Shown here piece after piece: positions 6,982 through 12,981 of a stretch of DNA of 32,000 nt. The DNA comes from Geotalea daltonii FRC-32 (lineage in GTDB: Bacteria; Desulfobacterota; Desulfuromonadia; Geobacterales; Geobacteraceae). The translations under genes and the position numbers were made by a program. Position 1 is the stretch's first letter. Each line of letters begins with the position of its first letter. The stretch spans positions 2,730,001-2,762,000 of the forward strand of contig NC_011979.1 of assembly GCF_000022265.1 (NCBI RefSeq), read 5' to 3'. The notes under the pieces are model-generated. The model did not search any database and was not told the DNA's origin. It saw only the letters and a list, made by a program, of their open reading frames with translations.

Positions 6982-7875
6982 ATGAGTGATACGCAAACTG
7001 AAAAAACCGGCAATTATCTTTTTCCCCGAAAAAAGGAGATCGGGTGGGCTGAAAAGGTATCGCAACGTGCAATTGATGAGGCAAATGGACAAAAGGTAGC
7101 CGGCATTCTTTCCTGGCTGGCGGCTCTCAACAACCGGTTGCTGGATTACTATGTCGGGATTGCCCTGCTGGTTTTGTGGGAGCTTGCACCACGCCTGAAA
7201 TGGATCGACTCGCAGTTCGTTCCTGCGCCCACGGCCATAATTACAGAAGGCGCCAAGCTGGCTTCTTCGGGAGAACTGCTGGTTCATATTGCCATCAGTC
7301 TGCAGCGGACCTTGCAGGGTCTGTTCTTTGCCCTGATTGTCGCTATTCCGCTGGGTTTTATCCTCGCCGGGTGGTTCCCGCGGCTGACCCGCTTTCTGGG
7401 GCCGCTGCTCAGACTGCTGGGCGAGATCAACGCATTTTCTCTCTTCCCGCTGTTTGTCCTGTTCTTCGGCATTGGCGAATTGGCCAAATTCAGCATCATC
7501 TTCTGGTCCTGCCTCTGGCCGATACTGTTTACCACCATTGCGGGGGTCCGGGGGGTGGACCCTCTTTTCGTCAAGCTGGCTCGCTCCATGGGGAGCGGGC
7601 GGCTGCTCCTCTTCTTCAAGGTGCTGCTGCCGGGAGCCCTCCCTTCTATTTTTACCGGAATTCGTCTGGGGGCTACGGTCGCTTTCCTCATGCTGATAGC
7701 TGCTGAAATGATTGGAGCCAGCACCGGCCTGGGCTGGCTGATCCACAACTCCAATGTCAACTTCATCATGCCCCGCCTCTATCTGGGAGCGGTACTCGTT
7801 GCACTCTTGGGAATGGCCCTCAATTATGGTCTTCATTGGCTTGAGTTACGAGTGGTCCGCTGGAAGGAAGCATGA
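6982..7875 (+). CDS. ABC transporter permease, NitT/TauT (sulfonate/nitrate/taurine) type, copy 1
   Basis: ...LWELAPRLKW...FSLFPLFVLFFGIGELAKF...KLARSMGSGRLLLFFKVLLPGALPSIFTGIRLG...AAEMIGASTGLGWLI. Confidence 0.85.
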   Translation: MSDTQTEKTGNYLFPRKKEIGWAEKVSQRAIDEANGQKVAGILSWLAALNNRLLDYYVGIALLVLWELAPRLKWIDSQFVPAPTAIITEGAKLASSGELLVHIAISLQRTLQGLFFALIVAIPLGFILAGWFPRLTRFLGPLLRLLGEINAFSLFPLFVLFFGIGELAKFSIIFWSCLWPILFTTIAGVRGVDPLFVKLARSMGSGRLLLFFKVLLPGALPSIFTGIRLGATVAFLMLIAAEMIGASTGLGWLIHNSNVNFIMPRLYLGAVLVALLGMALNYGLHWLELRVVRWKEA

Positions 7876-7912
7876 GGTCTTGGTCTGGAAGGCCTGAAAG
7901 GAGATCATCAAC

Positions 7913-8704
7913 ATGTGGAAAAATACGGAAAAACCTTCTCTGTGGTCCTGGTCCAGCTGGTTCAACCGCAGTTCAGTCCTTATCTTCTTTGTCGCCTGGG
8001 AACTTGTGCCCCGTGCCGGCGGGTTGCTGGAAACCTTCATAGCCCCACCCTCAGTGGTGCTGAAGACTCTCTGGGAGATATTAAACAGCGGCGAGTTGCT
8101 TGGACACGTGGGCGTAAGTCTAAGCCGTACTGCTTCAGGCTTCCTTGCCGCGTCGCTGGTAGCCATTCCCTTGGGTTTTTTGCTGGGGGGAAGTTTCAGG
8201 ACACTGGAGCGCCTCATTAATCCCGTACTCCGTTTCCTCGGCCAGTTGAATCCTTTTTCTCTATTTCCCCTGTTCATCATGCTCTTCGGTATCGGCGAAC
8301 TTTCAAAAGGGGCGATGATCTTCTGGGTCTGCATCTGGCCGATACTGTTCAATACCATCAACGGGGTCAAGGAGATAGATCCACTGCTGATCAAGTCTGC
8401 CCGTTCAATGGGGACCGGGATCGTCACCCTGTTTTTCAAGGTCATTCTCCCAGCGGCGGCCCCCGGTATTTTCCTCGGCCTGAAAATGGGGTCGGGTACC
8501 GCATTCTTCATGCTGATTGCCGCCGAGATGATCGGCGCCAGCCGCGGTCTTGGTTGGCTGGTCTGGAATGCCCAGATAAACTTCCAGATCCCGCAACTGT
8601 TCGCCGCCACCGTCACCATCTCCGTGTTGGGACTGGCGTTGAACGGCATTTTTGCAATCATTGAAAGGGCTCTGCTGGGATGGAAGCAGCATTCCCATGC
8701 CTGA
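7913..8704 (+). CDS. ABC transporter permease, NitT/TauT type, copy 2
   Basis: RBS is AAAGGAG. The protein has the same motif set as copy 1 (FSLFPLFIMLFGIGELSKG, ARSMGTG..., AAEMIGASRGLGWLV). Confidence 0.85.
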   Translation: MWKNTEKPSLWSWSSWFNRSSVLIFFVAWELVPRAGGLLETFIAPPSVVLKTLWEILNSGELLGHVGVSLSRTASGFLAASLVAIPLGFLLGGSFRTLERLINPVLRFLGQLNPFSLFPLFIMLFGIGELSKGAMIFWVCIWPILFNTINGVKEIDPLLIKSARSMGTGIVTLFFKVILPAAAPGIFLGLKMGSGTAFFMLIAAEMIGASRGLGWLVWNAQINFQIPQLFAATVTISVLGLALNGIFAIIERALLGWKQHSHA

Positions 8705-8797
8705 TCCGGTCCGGCCCTCAATGGAGCCGGGAGGCGAAAAGTCACTACGAAGAACAGTCCAATCCACTGCACTATACGAAGAAGAAGGGGGTATAGG

Positions 8798-11199: not shown

Positions 11200-11210
11200 A
11201 ATGCCCTGTG

Positions 11211-12170
11211 ATGTTTAAACAATTCCTTATCCGTTCATCGGGCGTGATCGCGTTTCTCTTGCTCTGGGAGATCGGGCCCCGGCTGGCCTGGGTTGATCCG
11301 AATTTCCTTCCCTCTTTTTCTACGGTCCTGATGGAGATAGGAAAGCTGTTCAACGACGGCACGTTAAAGGTTCATCTGTTGGTGAGCATCTGGCGTGCCA
11401 CCACCGGACTGCTGCTGGCCCTGGCTATGGGTTTGCCTCTCGGCCTCCTGCTGGGTCGACATCGATTGCATCCGGCAGAAGCTATCGAGCCTTTATTACG
11501 GGTCCTGAGCCAGGTAAATCCCTTTACCCTGATGCCGGTCTTTATTCTGTTCTTCGGCATCGGTGAGACGGCCAAGGTTGCGGTTGTCGCCTGGGTCTGC
11601 CTCTGGCCCGTTCTTTTTTACACCATTACCGCCAGCAGGCATGTGGAGGCGATCCAGATAAAGACGGCAGCTTCCATGGGTATTTCCACCGTGGACATGA
11701 TGCTGAAAGTCATTGTTCCCGGAGCGTTGCCCACTATTTTTGTCGGCATCAGGATCGGCGCTTGTCTGACCTTCTATATCCTGGTGGCAGCGGAGATGCT
11801 GGGTGCCGGCGCCGGACTCGGCTGGCTGGTGCACAATTCCGCGATGAATTACCTGATTCCCCGCATCTATGCGGGAGCCACCTTTATCGTCGTGCTGGGT
11901 TTCCTCCTGAACCGCTTCCTCCTTTACCTGGAACGAGCCCTTTTTTCCTGGCAGTCCAATACCCCTTTGCTGTTCGGTTCTGCCGCTCCCCCGGCAGTCT
12001 TGCGCCCAGGAAAGGGTCTGGTAGCTGCCTTTACCGGTGCTCTGGTCCTGATTGCTCTCCTGGGTGGAATTCAAGTGCAGAAAATCAACAGGGAGGCGGC
12101 TACCGTCAGCGACGGACCACATTCCCATCACTCGGAGACGGGGGGGCACAATGGACACAGTGGATTCTGA
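11211..12170 (+). CDS. ABC transporter permease, NitT/TauT type, copy 3, with an extra C-terminal TM and a His-rich tail
   Basis: MFKQFLIRSSGVIAFLLLWEIGPRLAW...FTLMPVFILFFGIGETAKV...AAEMLGAGAGLGWLV. The tail is ...LVLIALLGGIQVQKINREAATVSDGPHSHHSETGGHNGHSGF. Confidence 0.8.
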   Translation: MFKQFLIRSSGVIAFLLLWEIGPRLAWVDPNFLPSFSTVLMEIGKLFNDGTLKVHLLVSIWRATTGLLLALAMGLPLGLLLGRHRLHPAEAIEPLLRVLSQVNPFTLMPVFILFFGIGETAKVAVVAWVCLWPVLFYTITASRHVEAIQIKTAASMGISTVDMMLKVIVPGALPTIFVGIRIGACLTFYILVAAEMLGAGAGLGWLVHNSAMNYLIPRIYAGATFIVVLGFLLNRFLLYLERALFSWQSNTPLLFGSAAPPAVLRPGKGLVAAFTGALVLIALLGGIQVQKINREAATVSDGPHSHHSETGGHNGHSGF

Positions 12171-12981
12171 GAGAGGGCACCAAAGTAGCATATGTCTAAT
12201 GAGAATAACTGTCGCAGCCCTGGCGCTTTTTGCCTGGGAAGTGCTGCCCCGTATGGAAGTGATAGATCCCCAGTTCGTCCCGCCACTGTCCAGTGTGCTG
12301 GTGACCATAAGGGGATTGCTGGAAAACGGGGACCTGTTGACGCACACGCTGGTCAGTCTGCAACGTGCGTTCAGTGGGCTGTTGGCTGCAACCCTGATCG
12401 GACTGCCGCTCGGACTTGTTCTCGGGGGATGGTTTCCTCGCCTGCAGCAGGCTCTTGAACCGTTGATGGAGCTTTTTGCCCAGGCGAACCCGGTCATCCT
12501 GGCCCATATCATCATCTTCTTTCTGGGGATCGGGGAAGTGGCGAAGATCTTCACCATCTGCTGGCTCTGCATCTGGCCCATTACCTTCAGCACCATTGCC
12601 GGCATCCGGGATGTGGATCCACAGCTGATGAAGGCTGCACGCTCCCTGGGACTCGGCCGATGGCAACTTTTTTTGCACGTCGCGCTTCCTGCCTCGGCTC
12701 CCTCCTTCTTTACCGGTTTGAGGCTGGCCGCCGGGTATGCGTTCCTGATGCTTATCGCTTCGGAAATGATGGGTGCAAGTAATGGGTTGGGATGGCTGGT
12801 GATGCAGAGTCAGGAAAATTACCACATACAACGAATTTTTGCCGGTGCAACGATCATAACTGCCCTGGCGGTACTGACTGACCTGCTGCTTAAGGTGCTG
12901 GAAAAAAGAACTTTGGTCTGGACAGATAATGGTAGCGGCTGGCTGAAACCCCAAGGTCCGGGAATTCCCGTAGGGGAGTAA
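12151..12981 (+). CDS. ABC transporter permease, NitT/TauT type, copy 4 (start at 12151 or 12199)
   Basis: ATG 12151 follows GGAGACGGGGGG and overlaps the end of copy 3 by 20 nt. Motifs: ...FAWEVLPRMEV...IIIFFLGIGEVAKI...ARSLGLGRWQLFLHVALPASAPSFFTGLRL...ASEMMGASNGLGWLV. Confidence 0.8.
   Translation: MDTVDSERGHQSSICLMRITVAALALFAWEVLPRMEVIDPQFVPPLSSVLVTIRGLLENGDLLTHTLVSLQRAFSGLLAATLIGLPLGLVLGGWFPRLQQALEPLMELFAQANPVILAHIIIFFLGIGEVAKIFTICWLCIWPITFSTIAGIRDVDPQLMKAARSLGLGRWQLFLHVALPASAPSFFTGLRLAAGYAFLMLIASEMMGASNGLGWLVMQSQENYHIQRIFAGATIITALAVLTDLLLKVLEKRTLVWTDNGSGWLKPQGPGIPVGE

Follow-up and report, generated by a model that had tools for sequence, protein, structure and literature searches.

An orphaned nitrogenase-like subunit in a truncated ABC importer operon of Geotalea daltonii

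We describe here a stretch of 32,000 nucleotides (the window) from Geotalea (formerly Geobacter) daltonii FRC-32 (contig NC_011979.1, positions 2,730,001 to 2,762,000 of the forward strand). In it, an operon for a NitT/TauT-type ATP-binding cassette (ABC) importer contains the gene for a solitary nitrogenase-like subunit of the K (beta) type, which we call K', and no gene for a substrate-binding protein (SBP). The results suggest a model whereby a sulfur operon was truncated by deletion, such that the genes for the SBP and for D', the alpha-type partner of K', were lost; canonical D'K' catalysis would be gone and K' would have been kept in a D'-independent role. We give this reading a probability of about 0.72. 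The evolutionary origin of the solo K' operon is well supported.

The operon and the scars of its truncation

Genes in the window were called from a listing of open reading frames (ORFs) and from Pfam and NCBIfam scans. Six genes at positions 6982-12981 lie on one strand in the order perm1-perm2-K'-ATPase-perm3-perm4, with intergenic gaps of 37, 93, ~170 and 11 nt and an overlap of 20 nt between perm3 and perm4:

6982..7875, + strand: perm1, NitT/TauT-type ABC permease, 297 aa (BPD_transp_1, E 1e-20; SaoP/SsuC/TauC-like, below cut-offs)
7913..8704, + strand: perm2, paralogous permease, 263 aa (Pfam and NCBIfam)
8798..10144, + strand: K', orphan beta-type subunit, 448 aa (Oxidored_nitro PF00148, E 3e-64)
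10315..11199, + strand: ABC ATPase, 294 aa (ABC_tran, E 1e-34; NtrCD/SaoA/TauB-like)
~11211..12170, + strand: perm3, 319 aa, start possibly 11193 (Pfam, NCBIfam)
~12151..12981, + strand: perm4, 276 aa, start possibly ~12196 (Pfam, NCBIfam)

A preliminary description of this DNA, made from the letters alone, had given the same gene order, with four permeases and a single ATPase on one strand, and had called the transporter NitT/TauT-type. Both statements are borne out by the ORFs, the Pfam matches and the nearest NCBIfam models, which are SaoP, SsuC, TauC and NrtB for the permeases and NtrCD (267 bits), SaoA (254 bits) and TauB (244 bits) for the ATPase. All four permeases match PF00528 (BPD_transp_1) end to end and carry the EAA-type coupling-loop motif K-x-A-[RA]-S-x-G...LP. 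The ATPase, the operon's sole nucleotide-binding protein, has an intact Walker A (GPSGCGKS), signature (LSGGM), Walker B (VLLMDE) and H-loop (IVFVTH). No equivalog cut-off of these models was reached, either by the permeases (92-136 bits against 209-347 for SsuC, TauC, NrtB and SaoP) or by the ATPase (254 against 360 for SaoA, 267 against 292 for NtrCD). The SAO system (SaoP/SaoA/SaoX) was ruled out on the SaoA score and on SaoP scores of 118-136 bits against 295, and the SBP of related operons is likewise not SaoX (28 bits against a cut-off of 300).

The description had also noted that no binding protein lies nearby. Indeed, Pfam identified no SBP, of the NMT1/SsuA type or other, among the window ORFs of at least 80 aa, and none was found when two orthologous SBPs were compared with the six frames of the window by tblastn. 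Just outside, the ~6 kb upstream of the window contain an RND efflux system and no SBP.

K' is 100% identical to the G. daltonii protein ACM20844.1/WP_012647573.1. Its best solved relative by sequence is MarK (E 2e-73, PDB search), and MarK chains are also the best match to its predicted fold (TM 0.82-0.84, Foldseek); identity to R. rubrum MarK is 31-32%. Cys26, Cys51 and Cys116 of K' align with the P-cluster ligands Cys32, Cys56 and Cys121 of MarK (numbering from PMC12552129), and its Oxidored_nitro fold resembles K subunits more closely than D subunits. Neither a signal peptide nor a transmembrane segment is predicted. The earlier characterisation as a NifK-like, cytoplasmic-looking protein therefore stands on the PF00148 and MarK matches and the lack of such segments. 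An AlphaFold monomer of K' has a pLDDT of 73, with the P-cluster and interface segments as low-confidence loops, and does not separate the hypotheses considered below.

Four motifs had been reported as shared with the K-like protein at 19500-20816, and these are present in the BLASTP alignment of the two proteins. The alignment (34% identity, E 5e-82) does not, however, support a close paralogy: K' belongs to a separate and widely distributed D'K' clade, to whose members it is 55-83% identical. Hundreds of K' homologues with 54-94% identity occur in Geobacterales, Negativicutes, Clostridia and other groups, where the homologue is usually the K of a D-K pair, as in Syntrophobotulus (D499-K444), Polyangiaceae, Methylomusa and a Clostridia metagenome-assembled genome (MAG). 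Of the K genes of this family whose upstream sequence is long enough in the 79 metagenome loci, 64 have a D gene directly upstream. In the window, K' has no adjacent alpha-type partner gene, only a 19-codon remnant; it has no D, H or nifB-type radical-SAM gene of its own, and the window as a whole contains no NifH-like gene.

Synteny was examined in 8 genome loci from GTDB and the 79 metagenome loci, annotated by phmmer with window-derived queries. A single-protein scan of genome contigs yielded the 8 loci, and an alignment-based scan of metagenomes was needed to reach the older clade of solo K' described below. The full operon reads (SBP_bac_11)-nflH_a-nifB-like-DUF2292-nflH_b-cysK-perm1-perm2-SBP(NMT1)-D'-K'-ATPase-perm3-perm4 and is found in Geotalea sp. 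SG265, Geomesophilobacter sediminis and several Geobacteraceae and Desulfuromonadales MAGs, with genes for a NifX-like protein and for Mlp, an MtaA/CmuA-family methyltransferase, some distance downstream of perm4. Its core, perm1-perm2-SBP-D'-K'-ATPase-perm3-perm4, occurs in at least nine distinct operons. K' lies directly upstream of the ATPase gene in every variant surveyed, with or without D' and the SBP.

Against this background, the window carries traces of what is missing:

8737..8796, + strand: D' scar, the last 19 codons and stop (tblastn 58% identity over 19 aa, E 0.008)
6887..6931, + strand: 3' scar of cysK (PALP) (tblastn: window, E 0.26; corresponding scar of G. toluenoxydans, locus L002, E 0.002)
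6811..6848, + strand: terminator-like hairpin, 12-bp stem and T run (T7), just upstream of the cysK scar

The D' scar was examined by DNA and three-frame comparison with six relatives. It reads YEEQSNPLHYTKKKGV, compared with YEQPDPLHFTKQKGV at the C-terminus of SG265 D', and it fits the C-terminus of D' and not that of the paralogous D504. It also carries the ribosome-binding site of K', and its DNA is identical to that of SG265 through this site. The cysK scar (TGERYPSTPPF) corresponds to the C-terminus of SG265 CysK (DTGERYLSTPLFEE), whose gene lies directly upstream of perm1 in the relatives. Both scars are common to G. toluenoxydans (L002), which is syntenic throughout, and the deletion therefore predates the split of the two species. 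The comparison shows that one deletion of ~2.6 kb took the SBP gene and ~480 codons of D' in the ancestor of G. daltonii and G. toluenoxydans; the missing SBP and the solitary state of K' are then both consequences of a single event. Two suggestions of the preliminary description fall with this result: that the Nif-like protein occupies the place of a binding protein, since the relatives have a true NMT1-type SBP and D' between perm2 and K', and that the importer was built without one, since the end of D' is still present at that spot.

A second rearrangement can be shown in the same way to have cut the operon from its nifB/nflH/cysK head. In G. toluenoxydans (L008), the nifB-like-nflH-cysK genes are found upstream, fused to a paralogous pair (cysK-D504-K441-MMPL...D571-K457), and on a short G. 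daltonii contig (L022) the 3' end of nflH precedes cysK-D504-K441...D571-K457. Of these two loci, only the syntenic one of G. toluenoxydans shows the nifB-like gene. G. daltonii K441 is ACM20814.1, 30 accession numbers before the solo K'. The hairpin at 6811-6848 probably marks the left edge of the rearranged segment. At 6685-6848 there is no + strand gene upstream of the hairpin, and it forms the end of sRNA-like Rfam matches that stay below threshold (HrrF, 29.7 bits, E 0.004); it may represent a small RNA or a leader, or else terminate a segment that replaced the operon head. The region upstream of perm1 gave no Rfam match above threshold that would indicate a riboswitch or leader, and the weaker matches were hairpin-driven; a sigma-54-like TGGC...TTGC noticed by eye near 6868 has a spacing one base short and was rejected.

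Consistent with the deletion, the best 120 D' homologues and the D' clusters at 81% identity or more include no orthologue from G. daltonii or G. toluenoxydans, and neither species has a member in the five SBP clusters checked or among the best 120 SBP homologues (at least 55% identity). We regard these absences as negative evidence of moderate strength. The preliminary description had raised the possibility that the arrangement is unique to this genome. This applies in part to the SBP-less state, which was observed in G. daltonii and G. toluenoxydans alone, but not to the solo K' in a four-permease operon, which recurs in at least five other contigs.

Selection on the remnant and recurrent loss of D'

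The ratio of non-synonymous to synonymous substitution (dN/dS) was determined between G. daltonii and G. toluenoxydans, for which all divergence arose in the D'-less state; values for paired orthologues of K' are given in the last line:

perm1: dN/dS 0.13
perm2: dN/dS 0.12
ATPase: dN/dS 0.03
perm3: dN/dS 0.20
perm4: dN/dS 0.13
K', whole gene: dN/dS 0.27-0.38
K', residues 1-152 (P-cluster domain): dN/dS ~1.15 (30 non-synonymous, 9 synonymous)
K', residues 153-448: dN/dS 0.12 (10 non-synonymous, 24 synonymous; p = 1.6e-8 against neutrality)
K' of paired orthologues, both parts: dN/dS 0.06-0.15

By this measure, the transporter genes and residues 153-448 of K' (domains II-III) are shown to be under purifying selection, and domain I (residues 1-152) to evolve in a neutral-like manner, its constraint lost. 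Synonymous divergence is not lower in the constrained part of the gene, and the constraint therefore acts on the K' protein. Domain I holds the P-cluster ligands and, if NifDK is a guide, the contacts to the alpha subunit; residues 153-448 are constrained to the same degree as in orthologues that have kept D'. Invariant positions were defined from six paired orthologues. Of those in the N-domain, the solos deviate at 23-29% and the paired proteins, tested by leaving one out, at 0-8%; at invariant positions outside this domain the values are 2-4% and 2-5%, respectively. The V-F-G-G-E motif is broken in both species: G. daltonii reads SGG and G. toluenoxydans, through a +3/-3 indel pair, LSG-, where all 17 non-solo homologues aligned, the Mar-like and Isr proteins included, have FGG. 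Cys26, Cys51 and Cys116 persist in every solo. Translation from the new Met152 of K', which might have explained the neutral-like N-domain, was considered and rejected, as no Shine-Dalgarno sequence precedes this codon and both N-domain indels are multiples of three.

Loss of D' is not confined to Geotalea. In a Deltaproteobacteria MAG (L014), the SBP gene is kept and D' is internally deleted, with the first ~33 and the last 3 codons remaining; its K' has an N-domain excess of 14% against 5.5% and reads FGS instead of FGG. A further, older clade of solo proteins is recognised by FTDV[NG]CDF in place of HSGxGC. Its operon reads nifB-like-DUF2292-nflH-cysK-perm1-perm2-SBP-K'-ATPase-perm3-perm4, with neither D' nor a scar, and D' is absent in all five contexts that could be examined. 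Members are L035, L038/L040, the P0116 contig and L102, and probably also P0067, P0081, P0112 and P0118. In these proteins FGG has become [AP]GG and IGDD is lost, with Cys26, Cys51 and Cys116 kept. Among the best 120 homologues, the only full-length sequences that lack HSGxGC, FGG or IGDD are solos or members of the solo clade.

In a neighbour-joining tree of K' residues 153-448 (200 bootstraps), all ABC-embedded K' proteins group together (100%). The paired K' of SG265 is the sister of the Geotalea solos (99%), and the older solo clade (100%) stands apart from them, near L014 and one paired sequence. From this placement, D' was lost independently at least twice and probably three times, the G. 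daltonii lineage included. In the older clade the N-domain is constrained again (dN/dS between L035 and L038 of 0.20 in the N-terminal and 0.15 in the C-terminal part), and the SBPs are at least 90% identical to each other. A D'-less state that recurs with a conserved K' argues that K' has a function for which D' is not needed in cis. The operon in the window is the youngest and most reduced form of this D'-less arrangement.

A possible role for K' and the alternatives

In the complete system, the importer and its dedicated SsuA-family SBP would take up a non-volatile organosulfur compound under sulfur limitation. D'K', together with NflH, might then cleave the imported compound reductively, in parallel with Isr and SsuCAB (PMC11423573) and with Mar (PMC12552129), and CysK, O-acetylhomoserine sulfhydrylase and Mlp would assimilate the product (cf. 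bioRxiv 10.1101/2023.07.31.551370). In G. daltonii the canonical D'K' reaction would be lost, C-S cleavage would pass to the D504-K441, D571-K457 and MarDK-like pairs of the island, and the importer would either use an SBP encoded elsewhere or work without one. The role of K' would be tied to the transporter operon, and K' would most likely be beta-only, either self-associating around its Cys triad, with NflH as a possible donor, or serving as an accessory of the importer.

A more specific version is put forward tentatively. In it, K' needs no alpha subunit for its activity and is linked in function, and perhaps physically, to the four-permease importer, either as a homomeric Fe-S protein that receives electrons from NflH or as a regulator of the transporter or a cytoplasmic receptor for its substrate. 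Were it true, G. daltonii would represent an early stage of a transition that the older D'-less clade has completed, and a beta-only K' that is active or linked to a transporter would widen the known roles of nitrogenase-family scaffolds.

Several points weigh against truncation with a retained role for K'. The dN/dS contrast comes from one species pair with a dS of ~0.1, and part of the N-terminal excess stems from the single +3/-3 indel pair. L014 is a MAG contig of 1.2x coverage, in which the deletion may be an assembly artefact. A distant orphan SBP of the NMT1 type may be encoded elsewhere in the G. daltonii genome. Finally, the roles proposed here for K' and the SBP-less importer are predictions from sequence.

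Of the alternatives, the one that survives best, though we consider it unlikely, is that K' is a conventional beta subunit that pairs in trans with D504, D571 or the MarD-like protein at 18024, and that the hybrid processes the imported substrate. The genome does offer candidate partners, in the nflH(3' end)-cysK-D504-K441-MMPL...D571-K457 cluster of L022; D504, which is 70% identical to D', is encoded ~30 genes upstream, and K' keeps its three cysteines. However, each candidate D has its own adjacent K. This includes the D-like protein at 18024, which the preliminary description had proposed as a partner and which is only 29-31% identical to D'. The N-domain of K', which would be needed for any P-cluster, evolves at a dN/dS of ~1, and this drift in the P-cluster-building domain disfavours the idea. 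FGG, lost in K', is retained by K441, K457, the MarK-like protein and IsrK. Furthermore, the substitutions in solo K' are not shifted towards K441 residues, a convergence that would be expected if K' had adapted to D504.

Less probable still is that the operon is a decaying relic, non-functional since the SBP, D' and the nifB/nflH/cysK head were removed. The loss of three essential-looking parts would fit such decay, as would the neutral-like N-domain with its otherwise invariant motif broken. Nevertheless, all six ORFs have remained intact in two species that split after the deletion, the dN/dS values of 0.03-0.20 for the transporter genes and 0.12 for residues 153-448 of K' (p = 1.6e-8) indicate continuing constraint, and the older D'-less clade has kept K' conserved over a long divergence. 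The reading from which the analysis began, a purpose-built SBP-less importer in which the Nif-like protein replaces the SBP or is a dedicated partner from the outset, agrees with the invariable position of K' directly upstream of the ATPase gene but is very improbable, given a K' without signal peptide or transmembrane segment, an NMT1-type SBP at the same position in the relatives with a scar of its deletion here, and an SBP-less state observed in a single shallow lineage.

For annotation, truncation of the operon means that the G. daltonii "VnfN-related oxidoreductase" in an SBP-less ABC operon is to be read as an orphaned subunit and not as a cofactor-biosynthesis protein.

The D'K' clade, known systems and the genomic neighbourhood

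The best solved relative of the D' proteins found in related operons is R. rubrum MarD (E 9e-73). Identity between D'K' and Mar is 31-35%, which places D'K' in a separate clade. D' keeps equivalents of MarD Cys66, Cys91, Cys158 and Cys270, and MarD His429 is not conserved. The radical-SAM gene that adjoins D'K' operons encodes a NifB core (TIGR01290, 325 bits). Judged by this cysteine set and this neighbour, D'K' is a Mar-related Group IV nitrogenase-like system, which probably carries complex clusters. According to a 2026 review (PMC13474568), most Group IV clades are without a known substrate and gene context is of little help. D'K' is often wired to a dedicated SBP and importer, which provides an experimental handle on the substrate. 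An SBP gene lies directly upstream of D' also in a Clostridia locus (L020), and directly upstream of D in the D504/K441-type loci L021, L034, L037, L085 and L093.

D' is more conserved than K', and the D' proteins of SG265, Geomesophilobacter and many MAGs share one cluster at 90% identity. Identity is 65-72% across Firmicutes, Desulfuromonadota and MAGs labelled Methanosarcina, Methanothrix and Methanoperedenaceae. Conservation of this strength, extending to archaeal MAGs, suggests that D' is a strongly constrained enzyme that has spread by horizontal transfer.

It is already known that Group IV nitrogenase-like enzymes are associated with sulfur genes and NitT/TauT importers, and these enzymes are emerging as the anaerobic route for C-S bond cleavage. 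The closest characterised system is Mar (MarBHDK of R. rubrum, Group IV-C; PDB 9FMG, 9D9U; PMC12552129), the best solved relative of both K' and D'. As in Mar, K' has three P-cluster cysteines of the beta type and D' has three of the alpha type as well as the cofactor ligand Cys270, genes for a NifB-like radical-SAM enzyme, NflH and a NifX-like protein are nearby, and the neighbourhood is one of sulfur assimilation (O-acetylhomoserine sulfhydrylase, CysK). Unlike Mar, D'K' sits inside an ABC importer operon with the SBP gene directly upstream, and in G. daltonii the D is deleted. K' itself was rejected as a MarK orthologue, on its 31-32% identity and because the window has its own, far closer Mar-like pair at 18024-20816.

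Isr (IsrBHDK with SsuCAB, Rhodobacter capsulatus, Group IV-F; PMC11423573) is a C-S-cleaving enzyme that is coupled to, and induced with, a NitT/TauT importer, and is the precedent for an importer and a nitrogenase-like reductase acting together in anaerobic sulfur assimilation. Its isr and ssu genes, however, form separate clusters and are not interleaved. IsrD has one P-cluster cysteine and no Cys275 equivalent, whereas D' has three and the Cys270 equivalent, and IsrB is a BciD-like radical-SAM enzyme of ~400 aa, whereas the partner of D'K' is a NifB core. K' is 37% identical to Methylomusa IsrK, and the Methylomusa Isr genes are the neighbouring D473-K448 set (Table S9, PMC11423573). Membership of Isr was therefore ruled out by the cysteine pattern of D', by the NifB-like radical-SAM partner and by comparing the Table S9 accessions with those of the cluster. 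In Methylomusa anaerophila (L017), D'K' and a NifX-like gene directly adjoin an Isr cluster (nflH-IsrD-IsrK-ATPase-permease-SBP-IsrB), and automatic annotation could easily confuse the two.

Homomeric catalytic components that work with a NifH-like reductase are known from CfbCD and the two-gene Group VI NflHD (PMC13474568). In all known cases these keep the D/N (alpha) type, whereas the window keeps the K (beta) type, for which a homomeric state is hypothetical. The SsuABC, TauABC and NrtABCD importers have permeases and ATPases of the same families, and the relatives' operons share with them an SBP of the NMT1/SsuA family; they differ from the present operon, which has four paralogous permeases for one ATPase and, in the relatives, genes for a cytoplasmic enzyme between the SBP and the ATPase. 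Type 1 mlp clusters (bioRxiv 10.1101/2023.07.31.551370) contain an MtaA-like methyltransferase, SelD and a NifS-like desulfurase beside Mar-like genes, as do the window and L020. Unlike in those clusters, the window yielded neither a corrinoid protein nor a RamA-like activase, and an ABC-embedded D'K' is not described in that paper. The preliminary description had thought the coupling of a solo protein to a transporter uncharacterised, and we found no paper that describes it; nor does the literature found describe D'K' interleaved with the genes of a four-permease importer, the placement of an SBP gene immediately before D', or, for this family, a recurrent loss of the cofactor-bearing alpha subunit in which the beta subunit is retained.

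Downstream of perm4, the window contains the following genes:

13051..13530, + strand: Cys-rich exported protein of 159 aa with an N-terminal hydrophobic segment (CSGDCRVCGCE...CCCW)
13592..14770, + strand: Met-rich protein, weakly outer-membrane-channel-like (MDMHMLMIM...MDMLMDMGMGMG)
14922..15344, + strand: NifX-like protein (Pfam/NCBIfam)
~15377..16465, + strand: MtaA/CmuA-family methyltransferase, Mlp (Pfam/NCBIfam)
16714..18027, + strand: O-acetylhomoserine sulfhydrylase (Pfam/NCBIfam)
18024..19499, + strand: MarD-like protein (R. rubrum MarD, E 2e-97)
19500..20816, + strand: MarK-like protein (R. rubrum MarK, E 3.5e-106)

Only G. daltonii and G. toluenoxydans have the Cys-rich/Met-rich pair inserted between perm4 and the NifX-like gene, and the same pair occurs beside a D504/K441-type cluster in a metagenome locus (L036:492-2489). 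The Phenol_MetA_deg match of the Met-rich protein scores 20.7 bits, below the cut-off of 22; together the two proteins may form an uptake module of the outer membrane, possibly one related to metals. The NifX/NafY-like protein at 14922-15344 ends in a Gly/Cys-rich tail (GCGSGGGCGCGGSGGNSCR), which is unusual for carriers of the NifX type. Among the four permeases, only perm3 has an extra C-terminal hydrophobic helix followed by a His-rich tail, G-x-H-S-x-H... (window 12000-12170). This His-containing tail is kept across the clade (L002, L012, L016, L024, L025, L035, L038 and L102); it would face the periplasm if the helix spans the membrane, and could bind a metal or dock the SBP.

Further downstream, positions 24065-27155 encode in a row a NifS-like cysteine desulfurase, SelD (TIGR00476, 376 bits) and a class I methyltransferase, preceded by GNAT, LysE, an MGMT-type DNA-binding-domain protein and an aminotransferase. 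Such a gene set points to the handling of selenium in addition to sulfur in this island, matching the selenium link proposed for mlp clusters.

With the orphan K' included, G. daltonii and G. toluenoxydans have four Group IV-type component-1 loci. In the island seen in L008 and L022, D504-K441 lies by MMPL-DUF1302-DUF1329, and D571-K457 is followed by a NifX-like gene. The island also carries a canonical-like and a divergent NifH-like gene, together with two DUF2292 mini-genes and genes for a stand-alone NifB core, an Rrf2 regulator and a sigma-54 activator. In G. toluenoxydans it lies ~10-30 kb upstream of the region that is syntenic with the window.

Two features of the related contigs concern gene calling. 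In SG265, an apparent permease-SBP fusion of 650 aa (L010:6443-8395) was rejected, as perm2 is read in another frame by its first ~297 codons and the genuine SBP starts at L010:7334; such pseudo-fusions are a trap for ORF-based annotation in DNA of similar G+C. In the draft genome of G. toluenoxydans JCM 15764 (L001/L009, BBCJ01000036), the ATPase, perm4, both sulfhydrylases and MarD are split, and these genes are intact in the newer GCA_054653375.1 (L002), so the splits look like sequencing frameshifts.

At the other end of the window, the efflux system upstream of its start (L018) is of the CusB/CzcB-AcrB type, with the C-terminus of AcrB at window positions 1-519. Beyond AcrB and up to position 2547 lie a small 2x[4Fe-4S] ferredoxin and a CdhD-like protein on the opposite strand, and then MarR and a C_GCAxxG_C_C redox protein.

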